DNA of 64,000 nucleotides from an uncultured Methanosarcinales archaeon (GCA_964572035.1 CAZNDX010000002.1:144056-208055); one strand, 5' to 3'. Shown: positions 1,800 through 58,392, counted from the first letter of the stretch. Notes: generated by a model not told the origin, from the letters alone. Made by a program: numbers and translations.

Positions 1800-1837
1800 C
1801 ACAAGTATTATAAACCCTTTTTTTAGACGATTTTTCT

Positions 1838-2915: not shown

Positions 2916-3622
2916 TTATTTTCTTTTTCGAGCCAGATATTTTATTTTGTCGTGCTCTTTTTTGAGCAGCGCAGTCATCTCATATTCTTCAGATTTTATA
3001 GTCATCATCTGGTACATGATGTTTAACACCAAGTCCTCATTTTCTTCCTTCAACGCCATATACATTTCTTTGATTTGGTTGGGATGCGGATACCCTTTCA
3101 TTAATGAATAAAAGTCGTGTCTTATTTTTTTGAGCTTTTTTTCATCCTTTATTATTAACGCTTCCTTCACTGGAAAAATAAAATTGTACAAAGCAATTGC
3201 GCAGAAGCTTTTTGGAGAAATATTCTCAAAACTCATATATCTCCCAAGATGAATAGAGTCGATTATCTGCATTTCAAGACATTGAACGTAATCTTTTGTC
3301 GCTCGTTTTACACATTCTCTTGACAAAGATTCATCAAAAGTGTCGCCTGCATAAACTAAATCCTCCTCTGCGCCCAGTATTTTCAAGAGGTCGAGCGCGC
3401 TATCTGTGCGAAAATCCTGCATTGTAGGAGTGGGATTTTTGTTCCAAATCTCAAGAGCTGCATTTGTGACTATGGCTGAAAGAGGAAAATTTGGAGATAT
3501 TCTTGTCGCGACGGCAGAGCGTTTCCAGTTTTTCTCTCCCTTTGTTGAAAAAATAAGCGCGCTGCCCCTCAGTTCGTGAATACTTCCATTTAAAACTTCA
3601 AATATTGCGTTATCACTCATAA
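2916..3622 (-). CDS. hypothetical protein (start chosen at MSDNAIF; longer ORF to 3809 would overlap dys)
   Basis: The ORF-track start at 3809 overlaps the convergent DHS gene by about 140 nt; the internal ATG at 3622 avoids this. Confidence 0.45.
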
Positions 3623-3669
3623 GTAAAATCCTTAAAAAAGAGTTTATAAGAGTTTTGACACAAATGTGT

Positions 3670-4662: not shown

Positions 4663-5069
4663 ACAAGAAAAAGCATAGTCTACAGTATATAAATGTAGCG
4701 ACTTTTAGATTTTAAACTAAAACAAAAAAATCCCGAGAAAGGCGGCCGCCAGTCTCAGCAATCAAAGGTTCCATCGGCGTGGATTTGAAGCTCTTCCACC
4801 TCAAGAGGCGAGAGTTCATCAAGCTCCTCAGCAGTGTAGAGCTTTCCGCGCCAATCTCTAAACAACAAGGTCACGGTTTCCCCCCAGGTAATCCGCAAAC
4901 CAATCATCTGTTTCCCACGTTTGCATAGATTTCACCCCAACAGGAATATATGTAATACAATGATATAATATTATGGCTTGAAAATTATATAAATTACTGA
5001 AAAATTTCCGGATTGACACAGGTGTGTCAAAACGTACTTTTTGTCACCACTATATAGTAATATTTATAA

Positions 5070-6560: not shown

Positions 6561-6841
6561 TAACCTACCAGCAAAGATGCGGAAGATGCAAGAAAAACTT
6601 CGTCATGGTAAGCAGAGGAGCTCAGTTTGTAACCTGCTATCCCTGCCAAAAGGCCGAGATGAGCGGCGAAATAAAAGACGCGGCGATGAAAAAAATGTTC
6701 AACATACCTGAAGAACTGTACATGAAAAACGCGTTCCTGCGCGACATAAAAATAAAATATCTGAGATTTGGAAGCCTTAGCGACAAACAAATAGAGACGT
6801 TCAAAAAAGTCGCCAAAGAATTAACTGAAGGAAAAAAATGA
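6557..6841 (+). CDS. small zinc-ribbon protein
   Basis: CGRCKKNF...CYPCQK provides a CxxC...CxxC ribbon; translationally coupled (ATGA) to the upstream and downstream ORFs. Confidence 0.5.
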   Translation: MITYQQRCGRCKKNFVMVSRGAQFVTCYPCQKAEMSGEIKDAAMKKMFNIPEELYMKNAFLRDIKIKYLRFGSLSDKQIETFKKVAKELTEGKK

Positions 6842-7053
6842 GCCTTGAGCAAACAATCCACTTTCTGACAAAAGGCGAAATAAACGAAGCTCTAAAAATA
6901 ATGAAAAAAGACGCGAAAGAGTTCAAAAACACCGCAGGAATAGAGTTTTACAACGCGTTCAAATACTTATTCCACCCGAACGCGCCGTACAAAGAAAACT
7001 TCCCTGAAATAGCCAAACTTTATTACGAAATTCTTCTATTGCCATACAAATAA
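6838..7053 (+). CDS. hypothetical small protein
   Basis: 71 aa; ATGA-coupled to preceding ORF. Confidence 0.4.
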   Translation: MSLEQTIHFLTKGEINEALKIMKKDAKEFKNTAGIEFYNAFKYLFHPNAPYKENFPEIAKLYYEILLLPYK

Positions 7054-7083
7054 TTTTTAAATCAACAAACAAAACTTTCTCAA

Positions 7084-7464
7084 ATGCGCATACCAAAAAA
7101 ATACGGACAATCACAAATAGCCAAATGTCCATTCTGCGGAATGATGAGCACAACAGTGAACGCTCAGAAGATTCCTACATGCGTAAAACACAAAGAAAGC
7201 TCACTCGATAACATGAAATGCGCCTGCGGCGGATATCTTGACTTAAAACACGGCAAATTCGGACCGTTTTTTACTTGCTTCAAGTGCGGAATTGTCAATA
7301 TGCGTAAAGCGCTTGACGTCAATTCTGGACAGTATAACGTTCAAGGTGTTAAAACACAAATAACTGCGGCAAAAACGCAAACAACTCAAACATCTTCTCA
7401 AACACAGCCAAAAACAGAGAAAAAAGAATTCAAATCAACCCTGCGATGGGAGGATATGGTTTAG
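7084..7464 (+). CDS. stand-alone topoisomerase-type C4 zinc-ribbon protein with Thr/Gln-rich tail
   Basis: CPFCG...C..H and CACGGYLDLKHGKFGPFFTCFKCG match the topoisomerase I-type Zn-ribbon pattern (C-x2-C...GRFG.F.gC..yP.C). Confidence 0.5.
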   Translation: MRIPKKYGQSQIAKCPFCGMMSTTVNAQKIPTCVKHKESSLDNMKCACGGYLDLKHGKFGPFFTCFKCGIVNMRKALDVNSGQYNVQGVKTQITAAKTQTTQTSSQTQPKTEKKEFKSTLRWEDMV

Positions 7465-27734: not shown

Positions 27735-27784
27735 ACACATTCTCTAAATAAATACAAAAAGTTGTGATTTTAGGAGGTCATACT

Positions 27785-28486
27785 ATGAAAAGAGGTCAAT
27801 CAGGAATCGGACTTGTCATTCTAGGCGTTGTAGCAATCATCGCTGTAATAGGGCTCGTCTTGCTATTCACGCGAGCGGGATCAGAAGGAGCAATGACAAG
27901 CTACACAGACACATACTTCTCAAGCTATCAAGGAGTAGGAAATCCATACGGCCCAGGAGAAATGGGAATCGGAGGACAATACCCAGTTCCACCAGTATAC
28001 AGACAACAAGGCGGAGTGGTCCAAGGACCAATGACGCAAATGCCAGCATACGGCTCAGCGGCAACAACAACAGCGCAGCCACCAGTAGTGGTAATGTTCC
28101 AAGGAGACTACGGCGCAGTTGACACCACAACATACTGCTACAGAGACCTATTCTCAACAAACCAAGCAGCACCACAGGACTTTTACAGATGCTTCGTCAC
28201 AGACCCAAGAGGAGTTGAAGACCCAGCAGTAGGATTTTTCCCACCGAGCAGCCCAGCATACGCGAAAGTACCAGCTGGATTGAAAGGACGAGGAGGAAGA
28301 GTATTCTGCTTCGCACCAGCGGGCTATGACAGAGACGGCATCGTAAGCAGACTAGAAGCTTCACTTGTCAACAGACCGGACCGAAGCGACAGATGGTCAG
28401 TCATAACAACCAACGACGGAAGAAAAGCGCTATTGTGTGAAGCCGGAGCGGCCACAGCATCAGGCGACTTCATCTTCCCACAATAA
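27785..28486 (+). CDS. type IV pilin-like protein (class III signal peptide, Gly/Pro/Tyr/Gln-rich mature domain)
   Basis: MKRGQSGIGLVILGVVAIIAVIGLVLLF has basic residues, RGQ cleavage-site motif and a ~22-aa hydrophobic helix like archaeal EppA/PibD substrates; strong SD GGAGGT 7 nt upstream of ATG 27785. Confidence 0.7.
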   Translation: MKRGQSGIGLVILGVVAIIAVIGLVLLFTRAGSEGAMTSYTDTYFSSYQGVGNPYGPGEMGIGGQYPVPPVYRQQGGVVQGPMTQMPAYGSAATTTAQPPVVVMFQGDYGAVDTTTYCYRDLFSTNQAAPQDFYRCFVTDPRGVEDPAVGFFPPSSPAYAKVPAGLKGRGGRVFCFAPAGYDRDGIVSRLEASLVNRPDRSDRWSVITTNDGRKALLCEAGAATASGDFIFPQ

Positions 28487-30359: not shown

Positions 30360-30399
30360 CTGTAACGCTGTTTTAAATACAATAAAAAGGGTGGATTTA

Positions 30400-32553
30400 G
30401 TGACAAAAAAGGGACAGATAACAGTCTTCATAATCATCGGCATAATAATCGTTGTCCTTATCGGAATCGCTCTCTATTTCTTCAGAACAGGCGAAATCGG
30501 AAGATTTGAAGCCGCGCGACCATCCCTTGAGGAGTTGCCACAGGAAGTCGCGCCCCTGCGAGAACAAGTACACTCTGCGATGAGACAAGTCGCTGTAGAC
30601 GCATTGCGAAGAATAGGCCAAAGCGGAGGATACGTGGACACAACATTTCTTGCGTCAAACTACTACAACCCAACAGAAGGCGACAGCGTTTCATTATTCC
30701 CTGACGGAGAACCTACAGCTTACTGGTACTACATGAAAAGCAGGAACAGCTGTGAAAGCGGTTGCGAATTCACATCCAAACGACCAGCACTTTATCGCGA
30801 ACAAGGCGGAATAAACATTGAAAGCCAACTGGATAATTACGTTTCAGAAAATCTGCCTTTATCGGTAAATTTTGAAAGCGCAGTGCCAAACTGCGATGTA
30901 ACAGTATTGGACAGTCCAGTTGTAACATCAACAATCTCTGAAAATGACGTATTCTTTGTCGCGAAATGGCAACTGCGAGCGAATTGCGGAGGAGCGACAT
31001 ATACTGTCGACGAATTTTACGTTCCACTCGATGTAAACTTGAAAGAGATTTATGACGTCGCGACAGAAATAACAAACATGCAAGCGGACAACCAAATGCT
31101 CGAACAAGCGACAAAAAACATAATCGATTTGTTCTCCCAAGTAAACAGCAAAAAACTTCCACCAACACGAGATTTGGAAATAGGAATATTTGACCCTGGA
31201 GAAATGTGGATAAAATATGACGTAACACAAAACTTGAAATCAACACTCGCTTCATACATCCCATTCATGCAGGCGTTCGGCACACGAAACTATGACTACG
31301 TCGTTTCACCAACAGACGCAAGAGACGCAGAACTTTACGAAAACATATACAACAGACACTTCTTAGTCCCACTTGAAGGATTCCATCCAGACCTCGAAGT
31401 ACGCTTCGCATACTACGACACATGGGAACCATACTTTGATTTGAACTGCAACGGACAAATATGCCGAGCAGACAGCGCCCAAGTAATGATTCCCCCATTG
31501 TTCATGACGATAAACAGATATAACTTCCCATATGATTTGAGCTATCCGGTGCAGGTTGAACTTCGCAATCCATATGCTTTGAACGGAGAAGGATACGTAT
31601 TCAACATAATGCTGGAACAAAATTTACGAAACACAGAGCCCGCAGTATTAGGCCAGCCATTCAATTTGACACTGCCAGCACGCGAACCATCATTATTCTG
31701 CGACCCGGGACAAAAAACAGCGGGACCAATAACCTTGACTGTTAAAAACGGACAAACAGGACAGCCAATACAAGACGCTAATGTCGCTTACTTGTGCGGG
31801 GAAGACATTTGCTCAATTGGAAAAACCGGAGCGGACGGAAAATTAATTGAGAAATACCCATTATGCCTCGGAGGCAATTTGCGAGTCGTAAAACAAGGAA
31901 TGCCATCCGCGAACTTACAGCTTGACTTAGTTGATGAAACAGAATATAATTTCACAGTAAACTTACAGCCTGTCCGAAATTTGAACGCAAGCATACGTAA
32001 TTATTTGTTCACAAAACAAAGCAAAAGAGGACAATGGTCTGTTGAATCAGGACCGCCAGTAAGACCGGAAGACTATCAACAAAGCATAATCACGCTTACA
32101 AAAGAGACACTCGCCAACGAAGAGCCGTTTGTTGTTGCGGCAATAATTGAAGGAGATGGAACGGCAAACCTAGAACTCGTTCCAGGAAAATACCACGTAA
32201 CAATTACAAGCCTGTTGCGCACGAACATAACAATACCAGTAGACGAACGATGCACTAAAGGCAAAAAAATCGGCGGAATAATAAAAGTTAGCGACGAAAA
32301 ATGCTACAAAGTTCCAACAGAACCGATAGTATTCGATGACACAAAACCATTCCCCTACTCAATGACACAATTCGATTGGGAAGTTACAAACTCAATGCTG
32401 GCCGGCAAAAACAGAATACAATTCAGACAATTCGTCATAGCGATAGACAAAGTCCCTCAAAATCAACGCGTGGTTGAAGACCTGACGCAAATTGAGAAAG
32501 TACAATTGTTCACGGAAGCAAGCAAAAACAGAATATTACCGGTGCTAACATGA
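30400..32553 (+). CDS. large (~717 aa) protein with type IV pilin-like class III signal peptide; paralog of 37956-40013
   Basis: N-terminus (M)TKKGQITVFIIIGIIIVVLIGIALYF (GTG start at 30400; alternative GTG 30391); shares motifs with the 685-aa paralog (GQSGGYVD/GTQGGYIN, L.NY..E.LP..VNF). Confidence 0.75.
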   Translation: MTKKGQITVFIIIGIIIVVLIGIALYFFRTGEIGRFEAARPSLEELPQEVAPLREQVHSAMRQVAVDALRRIGQSGGYVDTTFLASNYYNPTEGDSVSLFPDGEPTAYWYYMKSRNSCESGCEFTSKRPALYREQGGINIESQLDNYVSENLPLSVNFESAVPNCDVTVLDSPVVTSTISENDVFFVAKWQLRANCGGATYTVDEFYVPLDVNLKEIYDVATEITNMQADNQMLEQATKNIIDLFSQVNSKKLPPTRDLEIGIFDPGEMWIKYDVTQNLKSTLASYIPFMQAFGTRNYDYVVSPTDARDAELYENIYNRHFLVPLEGFHPDLEVRFAYYDTWEPYFDLNCNGQICRADSAQVMIPPLFMTINRYNFPYDLSYPVQVELRNPYALNGEGYVFNIMLEQNLRNTEPAVLGQPFNLTLPAREPSLFCDPGQKTAGPITLTVKNGQTGQPIQDANVAYLCGEDICSIGKTGADGKLIEKYPLCLGGNLRVVKQGMPSANLQLDLVDETEYNFTVNLQPVRNLNASIRNYLFTKQSKRGQWSVESGPPVRPEDYQQSIITLTKETLANEEPFVVAAIIEGDGTANLELVPGKYHVTITSLLRTNITIPVDERCTKGKKIGGIIKVSDEKCYKVPTEPIVFDDTKPFPYSMTQFDWEVTNSMLAGKNRIQFRQFVIAIDKVPQNQRVVEDLTQIEKVQLFTEASKNRILPVLT

Positions 32554-37955: not shown

Positions 37956-40013
37956 ATGAAAAAGAGCAACAGAAAGGGCCAATTAACGGTCTTCATAATA
38001 ATAGGACTCCTTATACTGATTAGCATCGCGACTATCATTTACTTCACGCAAGTCCGAACAACAGCTCCATTACAGAGAGTAGTCGCGGTACCGGAAGACA
38101 TACAACCAGTATACGACCACATAGCCCAATGCTTGAACGACATAAGCAAAAGAGGACTTGAACGACTGGGAACACAAGGCGGATACATCAACATGCCACC
38201 ATACATTTCAAACAATCCAAACGCGCACATCAAAAATGATGCGCTAGGAGTATCACAAACAGCACTATGGTACTACGAAGGCGAAGACAGAACACCAACA
38301 ATAGAATTCATGCAAAAAGAATTACAGGATTACATCAAAGCGGAACTGCCAGCGTGCGTAAACTTCATAGCATTCGCGGACAGATACGAAATACAAGTCG
38401 CGTCGCCACTAACAAGCATCGTGACATTCACAGACAACCAAGTAATCGCTGAAGCAAGATGGTTGCTGAACATTAAAGTCGGAGAAAAAATAATACAACA
38501 CGACGAATACGTCGCGCAGCACAACCTCGCCTTCGCGCCAATAGTCCGCCTCGCGACTGAAACAATGAAGTATGAAAATGAAAACGAATGGTTTGAAGAT
38601 TTGACAATACAATTATTGACATCAAATCCAGAAATTCCATTCGACGGTCTAGAATTCTTCTGCGGAACCAAAAAATGGCAAGTCAGACAAGTTAAAAGTG
38701 AAATACAAAACACGCTCGCAACAAGCATGCCTCTGATAAGAATAGCGGGAACAAACTATCCTGCTCCACTCGCGTCACCAAGCGTTTACAGAAATCTCAA
38801 AGATGAAGCGGAAGATATACGCGACGACTTGAACGAAGGAAAAGAACCGGATTGGCCAACAAACGTGCCAGCGGACGTTTTCGAAATGAACAGAATGATG
38901 CTCGACATAGGAATACCATCAACAAACTTGGTCGCGGGATTCGTCTACCAGCCACACTGGACAACATACATGGACGTCCAGCCAAGCCAAGGCGGAATGA
39001 TGTCAACAGCACAAATGAAAGGACCCAAACAATACCTGAGATTCCTATGCATGAACCAATGGCATTTCACTTACGACTTGATTTATCCAATAAAAATGAT
39101 GATACGAGACAACTCGGCGTTTGACGGACAAGGATACATATTCAACTTCGGATTCCCAGTAATAATAGAAGACAACGCCGAAAGCAGAAACGTATTCGGA
39201 GTAAGAAGATTTGACGTGCCAATAGAAGGAGTAGACTTCTGCGACAGAATAGGAACAGAAGCGCTTGACGTCCGCGCGACAGGATTCGTAGAAGGAGGTT
39301 TCACCGCGGAAGAGTTGGCTGACGTAAACATAACATATTCCTGCGGACCGCAAGCCTGCGTCCTTGGAAAAACATACAGCGACGGAAGCGGAGCAATAAG
39401 ATTACAAACACTTCTCCCAGAAGGATGCGCAAATCCAGGAATAACAGGAACAAAAGACGGATACTTATCAGACACGAAATTCGCGCTAACAAACAGAGTA
39501 GACTTGCAGCTAACAAGACTCAAACCAATGAACATTACACTACAAATAGTTCCATACTACGAAGTTGTAAATCCACAAAACCCCATGAGCGCATCCCAAC
39601 AAAGATGGCTTGACGAGCAAACAACAAGCAGATTCACACAATCAATGAAAGCGACAGTTGCCATCAGCGCGACAAACAAAAACTATGACCAATACTTGAT
39701 GTATCCATTATCAAAAGATGAAAAGGACGCTGGACTTGGCGGAAACATTAACTTAATTTATGACACAGCGCAATACGACATTGACGTAATATTATTCCAA
39801 GGCGACACGCCAATCGGCGGATACCACGCTGAAAACATCACAATAACGTACGATGAACTTGCGGCGACAAACAACATGATATTAAACGTCGTTGAATACA
39901 GACCAAAACCAACACAGCCATACCAAGAAGCGGGAATGTTCATATTCCTATACGAAAGAGGAGAAAAAGACGGACAACCGTACTATTTGGCGCTTAAGCC
40001 AACATTCACATGA
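37956..40013 (+). CDS. 685-aa protein with type IV pilin-like class III signal peptide; paralog of 30400-32553
   Basis: MKKSNRKGQLTVFIIIGLLILISIATIIYF; SD AGAGGA upstream; shared motifs with first paralog. Confidence 0.8.
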   Translation: MKKSNRKGQLTVFIIIGLLILISIATIIYFTQVRTTAPLQRVVAVPEDIQPVYDHIAQCLNDISKRGLERLGTQGGYINMPPYISNNPNAHIKNDALGVSQTALWYYEGEDRTPTIEFMQKELQDYIKAELPACVNFIAFADRYEIQVASPLTSIVTFTDNQVIAEARWLLNIKVGEKIIQHDEYVAQHNLAFAPIVRLATETMKYENENEWFEDLTIQLLTSNPEIPFDGLEFFCGTKKWQVRQVKSEIQNTLATSMPLIRIAGTNYPAPLASPSVYRNLKDEAEDIRDDLNEGKEPDWPTNVPADVFEMNRMMLDIGIPSTNLVAGFVYQPHWTTYMDVQPSQGGMMSTAQMKGPKQYLRFLCMNQWHFTYDLIYPIKMMIRDNSAFDGQGYIFNFGFPVIIEDNAESRNVFGVRRFDVPIEGVDFCDRIGTEALDVRATGFVEGGFTAEELADVNITYSCGPQACVLGKTYSDGSGAIRLQTLLPEGCANPGITGTKDGYLSDTKFALTNRVDLQLTRLKPMNITLQIVPYYEVVNPQNPMSASQQRWLDEQTTSRFTQSMKATVAISATNKNYDQYLMYPLSKDEKDAGLGGNINLIYDTAQYDIDVILFQGDTPIGGYHAENITITYDELAATNNMILNVVEYRPKPTQPYQEAGMFIFLYERGEKDGQPYYLALKPTFT

Positions 40014-49411: not shown

Positions 49412-49870
49412 TTAATGCCTCACTTTCTCAGACCAATACCACAACGCGCAGCCAAGAACAATATAAATTCCTGCCAAAAGCCACGCGCTGGGAACATATT
49501 CCTGAACCCATTCTTTGACAAAAGGCGCTTTTGAAAAATAGCCGAGCAACTGCGCTTTTCGCATAGGACCCATAAATGAAAAAACAACCGCTAAAAAACC
49601 AGGAATCAAAGTCATAAAACCAAGAGCTCGAAGCGCGACCTTTTTTGACTTTGTGAAAATATAAACAATAAAAAAGCTGACAACAATCAAAACAGAAGCG
49701 ACAATCAAAGAATTCCTCGCCCCAATTAAATCAAACGGAGAAAAAACAAGAGGAATCAATGGAATCAAAAGCGCAAGACCTGCGAAGTAAATAATCTTTG
49801 CAACTGTAGTAATTATCTCATAAATGGCGAATTCCCAAACCTTCCTTTTAATCTTCTTTTTGAACGTCAT
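49412..49870 (-). CDS. membrane protein (4 TM)
   Basis: 152 aa hydrophobic; last gene of the minus-strand surface operon. Confidence 0.5.
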   Translation of the reverse strand: MTFKKKIKRKVWEFAIYEIITTVAKIIYFAGLALLIPLIPLVFSPFDLIGARNSLIVASVLIVVSFFIVYIFTKSKKVALRALGFMTLIPGFLAVVFSFMGPMRKAQLLGYFSKAPFVKEWVQEYVPSAWLLAGIYIVLGCALWYWSEKVRH

Positions 49871-49874
49871 AGAA

Positions 49875-51341
49875 TTATGTAACAGTCGGCTTATTTATAG
49901 GGTAATCGTGCGCAGCTTTCCAGCAAATATCAACTCTATTAGAAGTTTTGCTTTTAAGCGTAAAAAGAAGATAATCGGCTTTTCCTGACGCGAAAGGGTT
50001 CGATTCAAATAAAAGACCGTCACGCATAGGATAATTATGCTGCTGTGAGATTAAAGTTCCAAATAATTCTCTTGTCGGCTGACTCGCGAAAACAACCTTC
50101 AAATTAGTTGAAGTCACAGGACCAAAAGGATTCACCAAATAAACACTGGCGAACAAAGTCGGCTGACCTGCCGCGTTTAATTGTACAATGTTATACTGCC
50201 ACGGGTGAAGCAGTCCAAGGTTAAAACTCGCCTCGTTTCCAGTAGTATCTACCCAAGTTGGCGGACAAATAAATGATGTACTGACTTGCTGAACACATAA
50301 ATCGCCCTGCCTGACAAAACCAGGATCGCAAACAATTGTGCAATTTGTACAAATCGCGTTCGCAGGAGTTGTAGAAGGGCCATCACACTCTTCAGCGCCT
50401 TCTCTTACGTTATTACCGCAATATTGCTGAACTGGAGGCTCCTCAGACACAGAAGGAATGCAAGAACAGTTTTGGTTGCAAAAGCCAGCGGTGCCATTAA
50501 CGTTACTGCAGGCATAAATCGCGGCAGTCGGAGGCAAAGAACTCATAGGGTTGTAAGGCGGCTCGCAATCCTCTCCAACTTCCAATCTATTGTTACCGCA
50601 AACTTGAACAGGTGTTGGAACGCAAGACTTGCAGTCATTAGCGCAAACATACTGAACTGAAGAGCCTAATGAAGGCTTAACTGATGTTTGAGATATAACT
50701 GAAGTTTGACCTGTCTGAGCAGAAATAATCGAAGAGCCATTAGCTGTTAATTGTTGAATAGGACAAAGCTGTCCAGGAGGATCGCAAACTTCCTTTGAAG
50801 AAACAAAACTGTCGCCGCAAACGCCAACCTGTTCAAAAGCGCCCAAAAGCCATTTCGCCCCATTACAATCCCACAACTTGCTTCCCTGAGCATTATATCC
50901 ATTGTCAGCGCACCAATAAACAACAACATAATTCAAGCCAGCAGGGAATTTCTGAGGATTAACAGGAACAGAAAACACTGCCTTATTCATATGCCATTTA
51001 TTTCCCTTCAAAACACCGCTTTGTGAAGGTTCAGAAAATCTCTGATCCCACATATTATATTGACGATTAAACTCATACATCGTTCCAAAAATGTAAAGTT
51101 CGCGAGTATCCGAAGCAGGACGTTCAACAGTAACCTTAATTGTGTCGCCTGATTTGACAAATTCAGGAGTGATATCGGTATATTTTAACGGAGCAGCCCA
51201 ATTTGGAAACGCGCCAATAGGAATTCCGCCAAGCGCCATGCCAACGGCCGCTTCACCAGGGCGATTTGGTTCTGGAGGAAACTCCTGTCTTTCGCAGGCA
51301 AACAGAAATAAAATGATGAAAAGAAAAACAAAACGCTTCAT
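49875..51341 (-). CDS. lipoprotein, paralog A, with shared N-terminal domain and Myxococcus-type Cys-rich repeats (CGNN...E.GE.C)
   Basis: Signal + Cys (LFLFAC-E); conserved domain ...NWAAPLKYTDITP...NYVVVYWC...WDCNGAKWLLGAFE; repeats VQVCGNNRLEVGEDCEPP and QYCGNNVREGAEECDGP. Confidence 0.75.
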   Translation of the reverse strand: MKRFVFLFIILFLFACERQEFPPEPNRPGEAAVGMALGGIPIGAFPNWAAPLKYTDITPEFVKSGDTIKVTVERPASDTRELYIFGTMYEFNRQYNMWDQRFSEPSQSGVLKGNKWHMNKAVFSVPVNPQKFPAGLNYVVVYWCADNGYNAQGSKLWDCNGAKWLLGAFEQVGVCGDSFVSSKEVCDPPGQLCPIQQLTANGSSIISAQTGQTSVISQTSVKPSLGSSVQYVCANDCKSCVPTPVQVCGNNRLEVGEDCEPPYNPMSSLPPTAAIYACSNVNGTAGFCNQNCSCIPSVSEEPPVQQYCGNNVREGAEECDGPSTTPANAICTNCTIVCDPGFVRQGDLCVQQVSTSFICPPTWVDTTGNEASFNLGLLHPWQYNIVQLNAAGQPTLFASVYLVNPFGPVTSTNLKVVFASQPTRELFGTLISQQHNYPMRDGLLFESNPFASGKADYLLFTLKSKTSNRVDICWKAAHDYPINKPTVT

Positions 51342-52252
51342 TGCTTCACAAGGTCAGACGGGTACTTCTTCAAATACGCGTCAATAACCTCCTTATTCGC
51401 ATCATTGCCGTAGGTTTGCACGTAAATAATTTTTTTACCACTGGTCCAAACCGCAATTCTATGATTCTCAACAGATTGGAACAACGCCAAATTATTTCCA
51501 CTATGGAATTTCCATCCTTCCTTAATTATGTCGCCAAAGAATGTTTTCGCGGTAAACATAACGTCTTCCCTGTTATCGAAATCAAACACGTGCACAAGAA
51601 CAGTCAAGCCGCCACCTTCTGGGGTAGTGTATTTCGCGTCATAACGCACACATTCAACTTGATGTCCTCCGAACTCATCATACTCGGCCAAAGTTCCAGA
51701 CATTGTGAAAGGAGTAATTTCGCTTACAACAATCTGAGGAATATTCGCTGATTCAGGAATCTTAACAGCAGCGGTGTCCTCGAGGTTAAACTCCAAAAGC
51801 ATCCACTTGTTGCCGTTGCATTCCCACGCCGCGTCAACTTTTGTACAGCCGTAAACTACGACAAAATTTTTGCCAGGAGTGAATTTCATTTCAGAGATGT
51901 CGACGCTGCCGACAGCGCTTCCCTGAATCCAACTCTGAACTTTTTTACCTGAAAGGTCAAAACGCTCCCAAGTTCTTGAATTAGAATTGAAAAGGTAAGC
52001 TGAAGAATAAACATAATCATAATTAGTAACTGACAAAATCGCGCTATCGCCATATTTAACATCAAGAGGAGTCAAAGTCGCGAATTTCGCCTGAGCTGCC
52101 CAAGAGGGCATTCCTGCAGCCATGCCCGCAATTGCCTGACCGGCAACACTTCCGCCAGGAGGCGGAGGACTTGGCGGCAATTCATCGCCACACGCAGTAA
52201 GAAGTAATAGTGAAACCAACGCCGTAATTAGTGCAAGCCTTCTCATAGTCAA
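51338..52252 (-). CDS. lipoprotein, paralog B (shared N-terminal domain, distinct C-terminal domain)
   Basis: LLLTACGDELPPSPPPPGG lipobox + Pro-rich; ...SWAAQAKFATLTP...NFVVVYGC...WECNGNKWMLLEFN aligns with paralogs A and C; ATGA overlap. Confidence 0.7.
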   Translation of the reverse strand: MTMRRLALITALVSLLLLTACGDELPPSPPPPGGSVAGQAIAGMAAGMPSWAAQAKFATLTPLDVKYGDSAILSVTNYDYVYSSAYLFNSNSRTWERFDLSGKKVQSWIQGSAVGSVDISEMKFTPGKNFVVVYGCTKVDAAWECNGNKWMLLEFNLEDTAAVKIPESANIPQIVVSEITPFTMSGTLAEYDEFGGHQVECVRYDAKYTTPEGGGLTVLVHVFDFDNREDVMFTAKTFFGDIIKEGWKFHSGNNLALFQSVENHRIAVWTSGKKIIYVQTYGNDANKEVIDAYLKKYPSDLVKQ

Positions 52253-52283
52253 CCTCTTTTTTGTTTTATAACGGCACTGCCAT

Positions 52284-53129
52284 TTATAAAGGTTTACTTG
52301 GCGGCGCGTTCATAACTTCATTAATAATATCATCAGACCAACCGGAAGCTTTAAGGTGCATCTTCAGCGTTTCAAGGCGATATCCTTGCTTTTGATAATT
52401 TATCAAATACTGTTTGAGCAAACGCTTAGACTCCTCTCTCTCGTGCTTTCTTTGAATGATGAGTGAAGCAAAATAACCGCAAATGATTAACAAAATGAAA
52501 ATGGAAAGCGAGACGCTCAAAATTGTGTTCCATTTTATTCCGTCTTGAAGTTCCTGCGCGTTAAACGGCATCTGCTGCTGCGGAAGTCTTCTCATTTCAT
52601 TTTGCAACGCCTGAACAGAACTCTCAAGAGCGGAAATTCTCTGATCAAACGCGCCAACATTTCTCGCCATGGCTTCAGCGTCATTAACACGCTGTTCAAG
52701 CATAACAAGAGAATCAAGCGCTCTTAGTTTAAACTCAATGGCTTCCAATCTCGCCTCAATTGAAGAGGCGCTGGTAGTTGAAGGAGCCTGACCAAGAATT
52801 TGGGAAACATCACTCGTGCCAGAAGAGCCAGCCGCGCAAGTGCGAAGAGTGCCGGGCTTGCTAACACTAGTTCCGCAATTATTTTTGTCAGTGCAAGTTC
52901 TTGTTTGCTGACCATTATAACAAGAGCTCCAAGAACCGCAATCCCAGTTTTCAGTACAAGACGGCTGGGAGGGCTGTTGTTGCTGAGAACCATCCATTCC
53001 AGGAGGAGATGGAGGAGCAGGCAAATCAGCGGCGGTAAGCATACCGGTAAAACTAGCGTAGCCATTAAGCAAAACAAGCCCAAAGGCCACGACGGCCAAA
53101 CTTAAAATCACTGCGGCTCTTTTTTCCAT
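52284..53129 (-). CDS. secreted/anchored protein with small disulfide module (CTENWDCGSWSSCYNGQQTRTCTDKNNCGT), coiled coil and C-terminal TM
   Basis: Signal peptide, Pro-rich segment, Cys module, heptad region (LEAIEFKLRALDSLVMLEQR...), TM SVSLSIFILLIICGYFASLII. Confidence 0.65.
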   Translation of the reverse strand: MEKRAAVILSLAVVAFGLVLLNGYASFTGMLTAADLPAPPSPPGMDGSQQQQPSQPSCTENWDCGSWSSCYNGQQTRTCTDKNNCGTSVSKPGTLRTCAAGSSGTSDVSQILGQAPSTTSASSIEARLEAIEFKLRALDSLVMLEQRVNDAEAMARNVGAFDQRISALESSVQALQNEMRRLPQQQMPFNAQELQDGIKWNTILSVSLSIFILLIICGYFASLIIQRKHEREESKRLLKQYLINYQKQGYRLETLKMHLKASGWSDDIINEVMNAPPSKPL

Positions 53130-53130
53130 C

Positions 53131-55422
53131 TTACTTCTCCTTGTGAACTATATTTAACAATGTTATGATAAATATTCCCAAAGACGCGATAAGAACAATC
53201 GCCAGTTGAGTTGCCTTTGAATTCGCGACATCATTTAGTGAGACAGCGCCTGTAATAGCCGGAACATTTGAAATTGGGAACTGAGGCTCAGCGAACTGAA
53301 CTTGGGACATGGTGGTTGGCTTGCAGGCGACTAGATATCTAGTCTGACTTGGGTCATTATAACAGAAATCATCCATATTTGATAATGAGCAAGAGCTTCC
53401 AACATTGGTTGGGCCAATACATCTATTATTAGGGCAACGAACTCCTTGAGAACCACTTGAAGAACATTCTAAGTGTTCTTGCCAAGAATACGCAGTAACG
53501 CTTGTAACGTCACCACATTGAGCGAGAACATAGGTATCAGGATTTCCACCTTGATCAACTTTTTTCGCTTCACCTTTAGTTGAACAAGATTTACCTAAGT
53601 CGTTTTCATTAATGTCTCCAGGAGGACAAGCTGCCGCACACATGGAACCTTGACATTGAGGAGTACTGCAAACGCCTTGAACGAGCCACCTTAAATCCTG
53701 AGGAACGGTAGGCCCGGAACCAGTCGCTTGAGCGACACATTGAAGCAGAGGAATGGTTCCGCTTCCAGTATAGCCACTAGAGTCGACGCAGTAATCTCCA
53801 ACTTGCGATGACGAACAGGAAGACCCAATTCCGACACTCATCGCTCCACAATCTCCTCTTTGAGAAGGACATGAAGGACCAGGGGGAATTGGAGCGCAGG
53901 CGCCAGAACTCTGCCAACTGTATGTTGTTGTGGACTGCACCTGACAAGTGTAAACATATTGATTGGCAAACGAACAGGTCTGGTTCAGACCAAAACACTG
54001 TCTTCCTTCAGGATCGCTTCCTGACAGCGGGCATTGAGTTGGGCACTGACCGAAAATCTGACCGCAAGTACTTGTTCTGTGCCACGCTAAATTCTGCTGA
54101 ACCTGAACACACTGGTTTCCTGATTTCGCGTAACCAGAATTGCAAGTGATTGTGCAATTAGAGGTGCATACTCCATTTGTAATGTTGCCGGGAGGGTCGC
54201 ACTGCTCAGTTCCGTTAATTATATTGTCGCCGCAGTAAAGTCCGGAAGTTTGATTAGTTTGATTTGACGCGTTTAATGAAGGGGTTGATGCGGTGATATT
54301 CATACTAAAGTCAACAAGCGCATATTCCGTCTGAACGGCAGTTCCAAACGTTGTTCCACAAGCCTTGTTGTCTTTGTTCTTGTAAACTTGCATTCTCATT
54401 TGGTAAATTCCCTGCGATAAATTTCTTGGAATTTCTAAGGAGCCCAGGAATACTGAAAGTTCATTATTTGGAAGATTAACATCTGAAACGTCAGAGAACC
54501 AGCCATTTGAAATTTCATTACCGGTTGACATATCGTGACCGCCGACAATAATGTTGTTCTGCTGAGCTGTTGGATTGCAATAACTTCCGGTTGGGGCGCT
54601 CAAACATTTAATCTGGGTTCTGAAGCAAATATCGGTGCCGGTTGGATTTGCCGCTGTGTTATTCACTCCGATGTAAACGTCATCTTTTTCACCTGCAATT
54701 GCAGGAGCCGGAAGCAAAATATCCGCTTTCTTACCGCTCGCCATAATCTGCGCTTCAAGAACTGCAGCTCTTTGCTCTTCAGGAGTCATACACATACAGG
54801 ATGAACAAGATTTTCCGCTTGAACAATCAGAATCGCGCTCGCACTGCTCGTCAGCGTCAAGATAGCCGTCACCGCAGTTAATCCTCAGAGGTTTGTACTC
54901 GAACGCGCCAATCTTCCACTTGCCACCTTCACAATCCCAAGTTCCATTCGCGACAGCCCTGCCGCAATAGTAAACAAGGAAAAAGTTCTTTCCATCGGCA
55001 AGGCGAGCATCCATTGTCAGCTCGAAAACGCCTTTGTCAAGCTTCCAAGGAGCGTTAGTCGCGGCTTGCGCTCCACTTAACGTGTTCGAAGCCGCAAGCT
55101 GAGTCCAAGTTTTTGACTGCGCGTTGTAAAAATATGCCTTATCATAAATAACGAATTGAGCTTGAGAGCCTTGATAGAAAGCAGGTTTTTGAGTTGTGAT
55201 GACTAGTTTTTCACCGGTTTGAAGAAGATCCTTGTTTATCGTAGTGTATTTAATCGGAGACGCCCAGCTTGGCACGGTTCCAACATCGGAAATTGCCCTT
55301 CCGTACAATTGCTCGCCACCGGGAGCTGGAGGATTAGGAGGCAAATCGAAAGAAGACTCTTGAACTTGGGAACAAGCGACTAAGGCTACCGCGAATAACA
55401 CTATATATAGTGACCGTTTCAT
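53131..55422 (-). CDS. large lipoprotein, paralog C, with shared N-terminal domain, extensive Cys-rich repeats and C-terminal TM anchor
   Basis: LVACSQ lipobox; ...SWASPIKYTTIN...NFFLVYYC...WDCEGGKWKIGAFEYK; repeats INCGDGYLDADEQCERDSDC and LYCGDNIINGTEQCDPPGN; C-terminal LAIVLIASLGIFIITLL. Confidence 0.75.
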   Translation of the reverse strand: MKRSLYIVLFAVALVACSQVQESSFDLPPNPPAPGGEQLYGRAISDVGTVPSWASPIKYTTINKDLLQTGEKLVITTQKPAFYQGSQAQFVIYDKAYFYNAQSKTWTQLAASNTLSGAQAATNAPWKLDKGVFELTMDARLADGKNFFLVYYCGRAVANGTWDCEGGKWKIGAFEYKPLRINCGDGYLDADEQCERDSDCSSGKSCSSCMCMTPEEQRAAVLEAQIMASGKKADILLPAPAIAGEKDDVYIGVNNTAANPTGTDICFRTQIKCLSAPTGSYCNPTAQQNNIIVGGHDMSTGNEISNGWFSDVSDVNLPNNELSVFLGSLEIPRNLSQGIYQMRMQVYKNKDNKACGTTFGTAVQTEYALVDFSMNITASTPSLNASNQTNQTSGLYCGDNIINGTEQCDPPGNITNGVCTSNCTITCNSGYAKSGNQCVQVQQNLAWHRTSTCGQIFGQCPTQCPLSGSDPEGRQCFGLNQTCSFANQYVYTCQVQSTTTYSWQSSGACAPIPPGPSCPSQRGDCGAMSVGIGSSCSSSQVGDYCVDSSGYTGSGTIPLLQCVAQATGSGPTVPQDLRWLVQGVCSTPQCQGSMCAAACPPGDINENDLGKSCSTKGEAKKVDQGGNPDTYVLAQCGDVTSVTAYSWQEHLECSSSGSQGVRCPNNRCIGPTNVGSSCSLSNMDDFCYNDPSQTRYLVACKPTTMSQVQFAEPQFPISNVPAITGAVSLNDVANSKATQLAIVLIASLGIFIITLLNIVHKEK

Positions 55423-55536
55423 ATCTCCTCTTTATACTGGATTTCTAGCACCCTGCAGTATTTAAATGTTACCAGCCAAAAATTATGACTTTTTTGTCGC
55501 AAAATGTTAAATTCTGGGTTGTCTTATTACTGAATA

Positions 55537-55554
55537 GTATGACAAATATGTCAT
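55537..55554. promoter_or_regulatory. perfect inverted repeat TATGACA-AATA-TGTCATA immediately upstream of SD/ATG of 55565 ORF
   Basis: Read directly; 7-bp arms, 4-nt spacer, ends 10 nt before the ATG. Confidence 0.45.
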
Positions 55555-55564
55555 AGGAGTAAAA

Positions 55565-55768
55565 ATGGCAAACGAAGAACAAATCGGATTCCATAAAGGC
55601 GCCCTAACGACACTTGCGAAAGAAAGACAGGAGCTTTCACGAATACTGCAAATCGTAGAGCAATTAATGCAGGCACACCTGAAAGCGCTAAAAGATATGG
55701 GCGTAGACCTAGAAGCCGAAGCCAAAAAGGCAGCGCCAAAACTTGAAGACGCTCTGAGAAAAGCATAA
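55565..55768 (+). CDS. small coiled-coil protein
   Basis: 67 aa, GGAGT SD 6 nt upstream; TAATG stop/start coupling with next gene. Confidence 0.45.
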   Translation: MANEEQIGFHKGALTTLAKERQELSRILQIVEQLMQAHLKALKDMGVDLEAEAKKAAPKLEDALRKA

Positions 55769-56508
55769 TGTACAATAACCAAACGCTCGGATATGAAAAT
55801 TTGAAAAACGATAATTATATCGCTAGAGAAATTTACAAATCACAGACATTTGGATACCAACCAATTCAACAATACTTCAGCTCATCACAAATTGAAAACG
55901 CGTACTTTGGAAACAATCAATACTTTTCACGCGGCGAAGACATACACAACGCGATAACAGACCTGTTTCTCGCGCCAAACAGACCAGCAACTCCGTTAGT
56001 TTCAGAATTCGGCGCGGTAAAAGAAATAACGGAAGAAACTTACAAATTATTGACAGAGCAGGATTTTCCACATGAATCGGTAAAAGTTTTTGTTCTGCCT
56101 GAACTTGCTTTCAAAAAAGTTTTTACTGCTACAGGAAATTACTGGAACGAAGGAATACAGGGATTCAGCCTAAACAGATACGGACACGGAATATCAGAAA
56201 TATTCATACGCGAAAACAACCTTGACTCAGTTCTGCTGACACTTGGTCACGAACTTGGCCACATTTTGTCAAAACCACTTCCAAATTTAAAAGATGAAGA
56301 AGCAAAAGCTCACGCGTTCAGCATAGCGTGGATGAACACAATAAGAGACAACAACATCTCAGGACTAAAACCAAACATAGTGTTGAACCCCGCGAAAAAT
56401 GGAATACACGATGCGGGATTAGAAATTGTAGACTATTTGATGAGCTCAGGAATAAGCGCGCTCGACGCGTTCAAAACACTGGCTCACGGACTAACAAGCA
56501 GAATCTAA
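55768..56508 (+). CDS. putative zinc metallopeptidase-like protein (HEXXH)
   Basis: LLTLGHELGHILSK contains HELGH; otherwise unassigned. Confidence 0.5.
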   Translation: MYNNQTLGYENLKNDNYIAREIYKSQTFGYQPIQQYFSSSQIENAYFGNNQYFSRGEDIHNAITDLFLAPNRPATPLVSEFGAVKEITEETYKLLTEQDFPHESVKVFVLPELAFKKVFTATGNYWNEGIQGFSLNRYGHGISEIFIRENNLDSVLLTLGHELGHILSKPLPNLKDEEAKAHAFSIAWMNTIRDNNISGLKPNIVLNPAKNGIHDAGLEIVDYLMSSGISALDAFKTLAHGLTSRI

Positions 56509-56520
56509 GAGGTAACAAAA

Positions 56521-58392
56521 ATGGCAAAAAAAGATTACAAAGAAGCAAAAGAAACTGACAAAAAAGAAACAAAACAAGAAGACGCATTAGCGCTGCCACC
56601 AAACTTGCCGCCAGAAGTCGCTGACAAGCTAAAACATATCAAAGAAAAGCTAGAAAAATTTCAAAAAAGCATAGTTGAAAAGTTTGATAAATATATTGTC
56701 GGTGTCGCGTTATTGCCTCCGCCAAGACCTCCCTCTCAAAACACGCCTCCTGAAATCTTTGAAGAAGAAAAGAAAAGATATGATGCTGAAAAAGACAAAT
56801 ATCATACGCTGGTTTTAATCGACGATTCAGAACCGACAAAAATGACAAAACAAGAGCTAAAAGACAAGCTCTCAACAATAATCGACAAATCGGCTGAGGA
56901 AATTGACAAAAATATACTTCCACAAACAATACTGCTTTCTGAACTATGGCAAAATTGTTACGATGCGAAATACGATTTATTGCAACTTATCGGAATGAGC
57001 GCTCCAATTTACGATACCGGAATGCTCGGCGCGATACGCATAGCTGAAATTCACAAAACAATGGTTCTCAAGAAATTTGAGAAGTATATTGTCGCTTACG
57101 TCATGGCTGGCTCATTAATACAAGGACGCGCGACAAAAGACTCAGACATAGACGTATTCATTGTAATTGACGACACGGACGTCAAAAAAATGACTCGAAC
57201 AGAACTTCGCGACAAACTGCGAGCAATTATCATCGGAATGGGAATGGAAGCAGGAGAAATGACCGGCATCCGCAACAAATTAAACATCCAGATTTACATT
57301 TTGACAGACTTCTGGGACAGCATCAGAGAAAGCAATCCTGTCATCTTTACGTTTTTGCGCGATGGAGTTCCATTTTATGACAGAGGAATATTCATGCCGT
57401 GGAAACAGCTATTGAAGATGGGCAAGATAAGACCATCAACAGAAGCCATCGACATGTTTATGCAGACAGGAGAACAAGCGTTATCTCGAGTCAATTTGAA
57501 GCTGAAAGACATTGCGACAGAAGATTTCTTCTGGGGAATCCACACTCCAACACAAGCAGCACTAATGCTGTACGGCATACCGCCACCAACTCCAAAAGAA
57601 ACTTGCGATGTCCTTCGCGAGGTATTTGTCAAAAAAGAAAAACTTCTAGAGGAAGAGTATGTTAAAATTCTAGAGAACGTGATAAAAGTCCGCAAAGACA
57701 TAGAACACGGAACAAAAACAGAAATAACAGGCAAAGAAATCGACAAACTGCTAACTGACTCGGACAAATACATGAAACGCCTGAAAAAATTGTTCACTCA
57801 AATTGAAAAAATAAAGGAAGAAGAAAGCGTGCTGCACATACACGACACAGCTGTAACAGTGGTTCGCGACGCGCTAAAATTAGAAGGCGAAGAAAAAGTC
57901 AGCGATGAACAGCTCGTTAAGAAATTTGATGACAAACTAGTCCACACAGGAGGAGTTCCATCAAAATACAGCAGAGTGTTTAGCGAAATAATCAAGACCA
58001 AAGAAAAATACACAGAAGGCAAGCTAAGCAAAACGGATGTGGACAAAATAAGAAAAGACAGCAACGAACTCATCCGCGCGCTGGTTGACTATATACAACG
58101 CAAACGAGTAGGAGACTTAGAAAGAGCAAGACTCCGCATAAAACACGGAGACAATATAGGAGAAGTAACTGTGCTTGGCAAAACGGCGTACATACTGCGC
58201 AACGTTGATGACAAGCAAATGGAAAAAGCAAGCATACAGCCAGACGGCTCCCTGTGGAACATATCTCCCTGCACGCTTGAAGAATACGAAAAAGCGCTCG
58301 CCAAAATGGCTCCACAAAGAATTACCCTAAAAAACACGTTTTTGGAAGGACTGAGGGCAATATTTGGGGCAGACTTCGAAGTGCTTGTTTAA
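56521..58392 (+). CDS. protein with tandem Pol-beta-type nucleotidyltransferase-like domains (first degenerate, second with GS...DxD) and long helical C-terminal region
   Basis: Copy 2 KYIVAYVMAGSLIQGRATKDSDIDVFIVIDDTD; copy 1 KYIVGVALLPPPRPP...YHTLVLIDDSE aligns but lacks GS and the Asp pair. Confidence 0.6.
   Translation: MAKKDYKEAKETDKKETKQEDALALPPNLPPEVADKLKHIKEKLEKFQKSIVEKFDKYIVGVALLPPPRPPSQNTPPEIFEEEKKRYDAEKDKYHTLVLIDDSEPTKMTKQELKDKLSTIIDKSAEEIDKNILPQTILLSELWQNCYDAKYDLLQLIGMSAPIYDTGMLGAIRIAEIHKTMVLKKFEKYIVAYVMAGSLIQGRATKDSDIDVFIVIDDTDVKKMTRTELRDKLRAIIIGMGMEAGEMTGIRNKLNIQIYILTDFWDSIRESNPVIFTFLRDGVPFYDRGIFMPWKQLLKMGKIRPSTEAIDMFMQTGEQALSRVNLKLKDIATEDFFWGIHTPTQAALMLYGIPPPTPKETCDVLREVFVKKEKLLEEEYVKILENVIKVRKDIEHGTKTEITGKEIDKLLTDSDKYMKRLKKLFTQIEKIKEEESVLHIHDTAVTVVRDALKLEGEEKVSDEQLVKKFDDKLVHTGGVPSKYSRVFSEIIKTKEKYTEGKLSKTDVDKIRKDSNELIRALVDYIQRKRVGDLERARLRIKHGDNIGEVTVLGKTAYILRNVDDKQMEKASIQPDGSLWNISPCTLEEYEKALAKMAPQRITLKNTFLEGLRAIFGADFEVLV

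Follow-up and report, generated by a model that had tools for sequence, protein, structure and literature searches.

A five-gene cell-envelope locus of a Woesearchaeales-type DPANN archaeon, probably encoding a lipid-anchored surface or adhesion complex

A life in attachment to other cells is assumed for DPANN archaea. To our knowledge, almost nothing is known of their surface proteins, and we know of no DPANN S-layer protein or adhesin that has been determined experimentally. Several described systems come close to the locus treated here in one part or another. AliA/AliB-dependent lipoproteins of Haloferax volcanii, which are predicted to be extracytoplasmic, have signal peptides that run from a short positive n-region through a hydrophobic core to the lipobox L-x-[AGS]-C at their end, and both lipobox lipoproteins and AliA have been reported for DPANN (PMC12462473). 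In the SlaA/SlaB system of the Sulfolobales, a coiled-coil protein with a C-terminal transmembrane (TM) helix goes along with large glycosylatable β-rich surface proteins. Myxococcus and CPR bacteria have large, secreted Cys-rich proteins that bear tandem repeat arrays (PMC4736985). [quoted passage not shown]

The window analyzed here—the whole stretch of 64,000 nucleotides—carries five ORFs within 49412–55422, all on the minus strand and named A to E. The cluster is conserved and belongs to a tiny, Woesearchaeota-like DPANN archaeon of the symbiotic type. On balance we favor the reading that A–E form a cell-envelope set, probably a lipid-anchored surface or adhesion complex, of a Woesearchaeales-type DPANN archaeon. 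Its features are the following:

49412–49870, minus strand: gene E, 152 aa (ORF)
49875–51341, minus strand: gene D, 488 aa (ORF)
51338–52252, minus strand: gene C, 304 aa with TTG start (ORF)
51338–52246, minus strand: gene C, 302 aa with ATG start at 52246, the start used by orthologs and public gene calls
52284–53129, minus strand: gene B, 281 aa (ORF)
53131–55422, minus strand: gene A, 763 aa (ORF; paralogy; family HMM E 1.7e-49)
53146–53202, minus strand: C-terminal TM helix of A, aa 741–759, ending ...GIFIITLLNIVHKEK
53323–54315, minus strand: hypervariable Cys-rich ectodomain of A, aa ∼370–700 (strain comparison)
54895–55290, minus strand: predicted N-terminal β-sandwich of A, aa ∼45–176, with Cys pair C153/C164 (alignments)
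55318–55344, minus strand: LPPNPPAPG motif of A, starting 10 residues past the lipobox Cys
55423–55564, no strand: divergent intergenic region 5' of A (sequence inspection)

The ORF sizes given by the sequence-only reading (488, 304, 763, and 281 aa, minus strand) were found exactly, and A, C, and D are indeed packed with a coiled-coil/Cys-module membrane protein (B) and a small membrane protein (E). The tight spacing it described holds for A–B (1-nt gap) and C–D (4-bp overlap), but B and C lie 31–37 nt apart and D and E 4 nt. On sequence inspection, a TATA-like element, TTTAAATA, and a GAGGAG element precede the ATG of A, and the B–C gap (52247–52283) contains a second TATA-like element, TTATAAAA; both TATA-like elements are putative promoters. 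Bacterial promoter/terminator scans carry no information for archaeal DNA. A prophage or mobile-element origin found no support in the G+C profile, which runs without a marked shift across the cluster, or in the tRNA scan, which gave no tRNA.

A, C, and D begin alike: a short signal peptide is followed by a lipobox Cys, an [LF]PPxPxxPG motif, and an Ig-like β-sandwich. Their N-terminal ∼170 aa are paralogous, with every BLASTP comparison significant (2e-28 for A/D, 6e-19 for D/C, and 2e-9 for A/C). This bears out the earlier proposal of three paralogous lipobox proteins with a common ∼130-aa domain and a Pro-rich motif, and the alignment contains all motifs quoted for it (SWA..IKYT, NF.VVY.C, and W[DE]C.G.KW...F). 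The signal peptides of A (MKRSLYIVLFAVALVAC; LVAC), C (MRRLALITALVSLLLLTAC; LTAC), and D (MKRFVFLFIILFLFAC; LFAC) have a basic n-region, then a hydrophobic h-region, and lastly a lipobox of the form [LVI][ASTVI][GAS]C, whereby the Phe at −2 in D is off-consensus. Lipobox and PP motif keep a fixed spacing: L-x-[GAS]-C is present in 124 of the 161 sequences examined, and the PP motif begins 4–5 residues past the lipobox Cys in 104. In the window, B also bears the PPxPxxPG motif; no further ORF of at least 100 aa has it. In the favored reading, A, C, and D are exported by Sec and probably lipid-anchored via the lipobox Cys, on which an archaeal AliA-type pathway would act. In n-region, hydrophobic core, and lipobox, they resemble the H. 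volcanii lipoproteins; unlike these, their signal peptides are of Sec-type, not Tat-type, and lead into the fixed [LF]PPxPxxPG and Ig-like start, a unit for which no description was found in any characterized lipoprotein.

In the AF2 model of D, this N-domain reaches a pLDDT of 93–98, and the PP-motif block reaches 90 versus 57–71 for its neighboring residues. The shared domain is a high-confidence Ig-like β-sandwich. The domain contains one conserved Cys pair. For A, the same fold is predicted on the basis of the C and D models. Neither Pfam nor NCBIfam scans of aa ∼40–175 of A, C, and D gave anything significant at E ≤ 1, PDB sequence searches showed no relative of the domain, and Foldseek against the PDB returned generic Ig matches only (TM ≤ 0.45). 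Ig-like and PsbP-like folds, taken alone, are not informative as to function.

Beyond this start, the proteins diverge. C (LTAC, LPPSPPPPG, Ig-like N-domain at aa ∼48–160) continues into an α/β C-domain at aa ∼175–300. D (LFAC, FPPEPNRPG, N-domain at aa 45–171) continues into three CG(D/N).....E.C repeats at aa 175–351 and a β-rich C-terminal domain at aa ∼355–488 without a C-terminal TM helix; outside the N-domain, its AF2 models are of low confidence (pLDDT < 50–60). A—lipobox signal peptide (LVAC, Cys17), LPPNPPAPG, and Ig-like domain—bears two such repeats, a CGDG repeat ahead of a central β-rich region and a CGDN repeat (aa 397–438) behind it, the latter followed by four six-Cys modules of ∼60 aa (aa 446–705) and the C-terminal TM anchor. 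This TM helix is part of a conserved anchor module, which is also present in many large family members. Even numbers of Cys lie beyond the lipobox Cys in A (42 of 43 in total) and in D (22), and A has 11 N-X-S/T N-glycosylation sequons. Pfam matches of A to GEVED (18.7 bits) and a Kelch_4 fragment (16.5 bits) fall below cut-off and were not used.

The repeats had been likened to the Myxococcus type. Both A and D carry repeats of that kind, which open with CG(D/N)(G/N)-x5-7-E-x-C-(D/E) and continue with more Cys as in TIGR02232, and their tandem arrangement recalls the Myxococcus and CPR proteins. In both proteins, however, they score 15.7 bits (aa 396–425 of A and aa 306–325 of D; E ∼0.01) against the TIGR02232 cut-off of 20.8 bits, and a Pfam scan gave no match. 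Unlike TIGR02232, they are without the DDGN...DGC core and have extra Cys, for example, in CGDG....EQCE...DC..G..C..C.C. The orthologs P0027 and P0017 gave 15.3 bits and no match, respectively. Similar weak myxo_disulf_rpt matches have been reported in CPR bacteria (PMC4736985). We assign the A and D repeats to myxo_disulf_rpt because bona fide copies occur in proteins of the same family: P0020 (40.5 bits), P0036 (43.4 bits), and P0041 (41.3 bits) lie above cut-off and all have the same N-terminal module as A, C, and D. The repeats were also thought unusual for an archaeon; in this lineage they are not, as they recur in many family members.

B is built differently. An N-terminal TM/signal anchor is followed by DLPAPPSPPG, a six-Cys module at aa 58–98, a coiled-coil-like helix at aa ∼119–190, a TM helix at aa 207–225, and a ∼55-aa tail predicted to be cytoplasmic. 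The helical stretch is heptad-like, with a sub-threshold match to the Pfam coiled-coil family DUF7310 (E 0.0015); for the Cys module, Pfam and NCBIfam scans found no family. In every related locus, the gene immediately upstream of C is the B ortholog, and a protein identical to B is present in public assemblies.

The N-terminal module defines a large family. An exhaustive HMM search yielded 746 clusters at E ≤ 1e-3—a lower bound, with clusters defined at 50% identity—and 298 at E ≤ 1e-10; a word-index search had undercounted the family, giving 9 relatives, and was replaced. The module almost always matches at residues 1–∼160, in proteins of 150–1300 aa. Every named member belongs to Woesearchaeota/Nanoarchaeota, which suggests, from few named records, that the family might be restricted to them. 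The order of B, C, and a large N-domain protein (X) is kept in at least 10 diverged loci/MAGs with NOG1 54–58% identical, and C is a conserved core lipoprotein of this cassette. The outer domains of the large partner differ completely from genome to genome. A lineage-specific expansion had been suggested for the locus; this applies to A alone, which is a recent, genus-level addition, but not to the core of B, C, and large protein, which is syntenic across diverged Woesearchaeales.

A is mosaic between near-identical strains whose B proteins are the same. Compared with the DNA of L024, the 5' end of A, the flanks, and B are 99–100% identical, and the Cys-rich middle is 50–60% identical with indels. 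In L026, the central region of A is swapped for a different Cys-rich array, while D matches over its full length at 76% identity; the D ortholog P0017 is 79% identical. Overall, the variation amounts to 40–50% divergence, large indels, and gain or loss of whole modules. From strain to strain, the Cys-rich outer part of A is thus exchanged or diversified, which would fit contact with host cells, surfaces or particles, or viruses. By analogy only, this recalls the Giardia VSPs in the variable Cys-rich ectodomain, conserved C-terminal TM helix, and very short charged tail; organism and sequence are unrelated, A additionally starts with the conserved lipobox and Ig unit, and the variation observed in it lies between strains and shows no sign of switching within a gene repertoire.

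In the favored reading of a lipid-anchored surface or adhesion complex, the [LF]PPxPxxPG motif and the Ig-like β-sandwich would form a common membrane-proximal base that displays different outer parts: an α/β domain like that of PsbP or the PknH sensor in C; disulfide-rich CG(D/N)...E.C repeats and a β domain in D; and CG(D/N) repeats plus four six-Cys modules in A, whose C-terminal TM helix is a second anchor. B would be a bitopic or hairpin membrane protein with Pro motif, extracellular coiled coil, and small cytoplasmic tail. It constantly accompanies C and the large N-domain protein and would most likely serve as stalk or organizer of the complex. The variable Cys-rich head of A could then make adhesin- or receptor-like contacts with host cells, surfaces, or viruses. 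A bolder version is speculative and in our view rather improbable: the lipobox–[LF]PPxPxxPG–Ig unit and B would be a Woesearchaeales-specific display system, with hundreds of ectodomains on one lipid-anchored base that docks onto the B coiled coil via polyproline motif and Ig domain; the A head would be a host- or partner-recognition determinant in putative episymbionts; and the C-terminal ...TG.A...Q-TM-LLNF-H[KR][DE] would be a second, undescribed archaeal anchoring/sorting signal.

Three things come out of this locus: a large unannotated family of at least 746 clusters whose N-terminal anchoring unit is fixed; a core of three genes (B, C, and a large variable protein) that is conserved; and A as a concrete candidate contact protein under rapid diversification. 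All three give testable targets for host-recognition and envelope studies, and the profile is useful for annotating Woesearchaeal genomes. With its many members, the family also lends itself to tests of the archaeal lipoprotein pathway that was recently discovered.

Other explanations have to be weighed against this. The variation in A could be the work of a diversity-generating retroelement (DGR) or other programmed mutagenesis, as its variable region has sharp bounds and DGRs are described as frequent in DPANN genomes (PMC8144416, PMC5758913). However, no direct DNA repeat of 40 bp or more occurs in the window, and thus no template/variable repeat pair, on which ground we reject a DGR; the changes are module-scale indels and 40–50% divergence instead of adenine-specific substitution in a ∼100-bp tract, and the proteins scanned showed neither a C-type lectin fold nor a reverse transcriptase. 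This explanation is largely refuted and keeps hardly any probability. The cassette might also be an S-layer or cell-wall scaffold, with B as a SlaB-like membrane-anchored stalk and C, D, or X/A forming the lattice. B does resemble SlaB as a coiled-coil protein with a C-terminal TM helix encoded beside large glycosylatable β-rich surface proteins, but it has an extra N-terminal hydrophobic helix and a cytoplasmic tail, and no sequence similarity to SlaA/SlaB or to any other S-layer protein was found. The structural matches are generic Ig, and the large proteins are highly variable—their outer domains change wholly between genomes, unlike those of a lattice subunit—and have lipid and TM anchors of their own, so that A and X, doubly anchored, would not need a stalk. 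We regard a scaffold as unlikely.

Doubtful to a further degree is a role of C, and of the N-domain/second-domain unit of the large proteins, as a lipoprotein for ligand binding or uptake. Its α/β domain might capture, for example, lipids of the host or precursors of the envelope, with B as membrane partner. The second domain of C can be likened to PsbP/Mog1-like and PknH_C-like domains (PknH 4esq, TiME 7cu8, TM1622 1vr8, and Mtc28 4pws), although at 9–13% sequence identity and without a profile match; Pfam and NCBIfam scans gave no family for it, and unlike in PknH-type sensor systems, no kinase or other signaling partner is present. The JGI name "lactoylglutathione lyase-related" of the C ortholog P0001 is without Pfam support and was discarded. 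A–E could also be accessory to the neighboring type IV pilin-like/giant-protein operon (27764–48221, plus strand), helping to assemble or anchor that structure. That neighborhood encodes giant secreted proteins and has class III-like signal peptides in the ORFs at 27764, 30391, and 37956, and the >1000-aa protein, p261, p201, NOG1, E, and the cassette are syntenic in several relatives. On the contrary, the two gene sets are convergent with the housekeeping NOG1 GTPase between them, and inspection of the A–E N-termini showed no prepilin peptidase site ([KR]-G-[hydrophobic run]). In L001 and L002, the B–C–X order is kept with different flanking genes: ribosomal-protein genes adjoin, and no such operon lies within 10 kb. 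The functional link to this operon that had been suggested therefore falls back on synteny among fairly close relatives, which at this divergence may be mere inheritance, and we consider an accessory role very unlikely.

E, 4 nt downstream of D, is basic (pI 10) with four hydrophobic segments and is outside the conserved core of the cassette. Pfam and NCBIfam scans found no family for it, and in L001 it was not found within ∼10 kb of the cassette. In related loci, E orthologs adjoin NOG1, with other genes parting some of them from the cassette; in L004, X and E are kept apart by genes on the opposite strand.

The five closely spaced minus-strand ORFs at 49412–55422 form a conserved cassette that encodes a new, well-populated, and uncharacterised variant of predicted archaeal surface lipoproteins and is not a one-off local expansion.

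Genes of the predicted surface-protein cassette
53131–55422, minus strand, gene A, ORF of 763 aa
52284–53129, minus strand, gene B, ORF of 281 aa
51338–52252, minus strand, gene C, ORF of 304 aa from TTG or 302 aa from the ATG at 52246
49875–51341, minus strand, gene D, ORF of 488 aa
49412–49870, minus strand, gene E, ORF of 152 aa

For C, the ATG at 52246 (302 aa) is the start used by orthologs and public gene calls. Gaps of 1 nt (A–B), 31–37 nt (B–C), and 4 nt (D–E) separate the genes, and C and D overlap by 4 bp; judging from the sequence, C may have an internal promoter of its own. The G+C content of the cluster (0.41–0.45) matches that of the remaining window, and the flanks are archaeal housekeeping genes (NOG1 GTPase, Trm1, ThrRS, and thymidylate synthase). 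Proteins identical to those of the window are also present in Logan assemblies, and all named relatives are Candidatus Woesearchaeota or Nanoarchaeota MAGs. TATA-like elements lie before A (TTTAAATA, within 55423–55480) and before C (TTATAAAA, within 52247–52283)—each followed by a GAGG-type ribosome-binding site.

A, C, and D are paralogs, as had been proposed: over the first ~170 residues, BLASTP aligns A with D at 2e-28 (30% identity), D with C at 6e-19 (35%), and A with C at 2e-9 (27%), and every conserved motif noticed earlier recurs in this alignment. The lipobox-like N-termini hold up as well. Short signal peptides, basic and hydrophobic, end in LVAC (A), LTAC (C), or LFAC (D), followed by the Pro motif [LF]PPxPxxPG and a domain of ~125 aa—the N-domain—with two conserved cysteines (Y.C ... 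W[DE]C.G.KW). Among the ORFs of the window, the family profile matches A, C, and D alone (E 1e-49 to 1e-156), and the Pro motif is confined to A, B, C, and D. B bears it as DLPAPPSPPG directly after its N-terminal hydrophobic helix, yet lacks the N-domain. The AF2 model of C (mean pLDDT 78, 12 sequences) comprises an all-beta N-domain (aa ~48–160) and an alpha/beta C-domain (aa ~175–300). For D, an 80-sequence alignment gives pLDDT 93–98 for the N-domain and low confidence outside of it; the Pro-motif block reaches 90 versus 57–71 in the adjoining blocks, which suggests that in the model this motif packs onto the N-domain and is not a free linker.

Pfam and NCBIfam scans and PDB sequence searches gave no match to the shared N-terminal region. 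A word-index search returned only nine C orthologs of ~300 aa. Searched exhaustively with the family profile, 1.84 billion representatives yielded 746 family clusters at E ≤ 1e-3, of which 298 reach ≤ 1e-10 and 45 reach ≤ 1e-30. The match nearly always covers residues 1 to ~160, in proteins 150–1300 aa long. An L-x-[GAS]-C lipobox is present in 124 of the 161 sequences examined, and in 104 of the 161 the Pro motif starts exactly 4–5 residues past the lipobox Cys. Further downstream the members differ widely and carry Cys-rich arrays, DUF11/CLIPPER, LamG, tandem N-domain copies, or up to four copies of the second domain of C. P0001, a C ortholog (92% identical), bears the JGI name 'predicted enzyme related to lactoylglutathione lyase', which is probably spurious, with no glyoxalase match in Pfam or NCBIfam.

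The cassette had been taken for a lineage-specific expansion. A simple local expansion does not fit the gene context in more than 10 loci of diverged Woesearchaeales/Nanoarchaeota MAGs (identity to the window 54–58% for NOG1, 48–55% for C, and 28–46% for B), across which the order B–C–X is conserved. Here, p623, p246, and p67 point away from B, C, X, and the more distant E, which are followed in the opposite orientation by NOG1, p201, and p261. X is a protein of 650–1280 aa (where complete) that has an N-domain and variable outer regions, and usually also a second domain resembling that of C; the X proteins examined have a TM anchor at the C-terminus. In L001 and L002, the surroundings of B–C–X are different, with genes for ribosomal proteins next to the trio and no E, which marks the trio as a putative functional core. 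The window and its genus-level relatives L022–L027 have D in the X slot—without second domain and TM—and A as an extra paralog upstream of B. In the related locus L010, three paralogous genes (1726–7061) between p67 and B encode mucin-like membrane proteins, in which the signal peptide is followed by (PTST)n repeats of great length, a short stretch rich in Cys, and a TM at the C-terminus. Upstream of B there seems to be a hot spot of genes for surface proteins. B itself lacks the Cys module in L010 and has a CGDG...EECE repeat in its place in L004. The predicted cytoplasmic tail of B (52287–52454) holds a ~35-aa motif, L..YL.NY...GY....L..HL...GW....I.E, in all orthologs examined, which gave no profile match. 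Most relatives keep the divergently transcribed p67/p246/p623 trio (55565–58392, plus strand) in synteny with the cassette; p67 is a small helical protein (69–88% identical across genomes), p246 has a HELGH zinc-protease-type motif and no Pfam match, and p623 has an NTP_transf_2 domain (71–86% identical).

The repeats of A (two copies) and D (three), CG(D/N)(G/N)-x-E-x-C-(D/E) plus further Cys, had been likened to the Myxococcus type, and only TIGR02232 (myxo_disulf_rpt, NCBIfam) detects them. With 15.7 bits in each protein (E ~0.01; cut-off 20.8) and orthologs scoring no higher, A and D are outside TIGR02232 membership by the curated criterion. Canonical copies of 40–43 bits do occur in P0020, P0036, and P0041, proteins with the same N-terminal module, inside arrays of the divergent type; hence, the A and D repeats are best read as divergent relatives. 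The module had been called unusual for an archaeon; it is not unusual in this lineage, and similar weak matches described for extracellular, Cys-rich proteins in CPR bacteria (PMC4736985) argue that it is not exotic in ultra-small symbiont lineages. A also contains 11 N-X-S/T sequons and four six-Cys modules of ~60 aa each (W-x4-5-C...CP...C...GS.C...C...C), which other family members share. The cysteines that follow the lipobox Cys number 42 in A and 22 in D, both even and consistent with full disulfide pairing.

A varies strongly between strains, as the related locus L024 illustrates, whose B protein is 100% identical to that of the window.

DNA identity of L024 to the window
A, 5' end (aa 1–100): 93–100%, most 90-nt windows 99–100%
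A, aa ~370–700: 50–60% in most 90-nt windows, some up to 86%, with indels
A, last ~60 codons: 90–100%
B: 97–100%

One of these indels is an extra ~100-aa Cys module. In L026 (identity 77% for C, ~80% for B, and 76% for D), A keeps its N-domain (70%) and last ~250 aa (52%), and the central ~300 aa are a different Cys-rich array. This variation probably arose by recombination or by the replacement of cassettes. A DGR origin is ruled out within the window, as the changes are of module scale and no repeat of 40 bp or more occurs in the 64 kb. L026 also has a gene for a 144-aa secreted protein between A and B (6665–7099), without counterpart in the window.

A ends in a conserved ~50-aa module (53146–53310), [ILV]TG.[AV] ... 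[KS]..Q-(TM: ..IA..GIL.ITLLNF)-H[KR][DE], which NCBIfam does not recognise. Of the 60 family members with 600 aa or more, 15 have this module, and its carriers include P0014, P0015, P0018, P0020, P0023, P0039, P0058, and P0062. It is a candidate for a new archaeal anchoring or sorting signal. Short [ILV]TG[x][AV]-type motifs beside membrane anchors—'SFTGM' in B (52998–53080), 'AITGAV' in A (53205–53225), and 'SITGAQV' in L010—may recur by chance.

The best-supported reading of the cassette is a putative lipid-anchored cell-surface complex. Lipobox Cys, Pro motif, and Ig domain would form a common membrane-proximal base carrying different ectodomains, with B as conserved coiled-coil membrane partner and A as a contact protein that evolves fast, is stabilised by disulfides, and has a further anchor at its C-terminus. 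In archaea, DPANN included, both lipobox lipoproteins and the lipidation enzyme AliA have been documented (PMC12462473). No S-layer protein of a DPANN archaeon has so far been determined (bioRxiv 10.1101/2023.10.27.564410). Less support goes to an S-layer scaffold with B as SlaB-like stalk and to a ligand- or lipid-binding role of C. The same holds for the proposed link to the adjacent pilin-like operon, to which the cassette would be an accessory: inherited synteny is its only basis; the two clusters are convergent, separated by NOG1, and uncoupled in L001/L002. The observations of the sequence-only reading are confirmed, and its interpretation is supported only in part. The cassette would be relevant mainly to DPANN cell biology and archaeal lipoprotein research.

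Class III (type IV pilin-like) N-termini in the neighbouring operon
27764–28486, plus strand, ORF N-terminus KRGQ/SGIGLVILG
30391–32553, plus strand, ORF N-terminus KKGQ/ITVFIIIG
37956–40013, plus strand, ORF N-terminus RKGQ/LTVFIIIG

At 720 and 685 aa, two of these three ORFs have a length unusual for pilins, and the same operon encodes giant proteins with Sec signals, one of 1050 aa (31 Cys) and one of 2280 aa (50 Cys).
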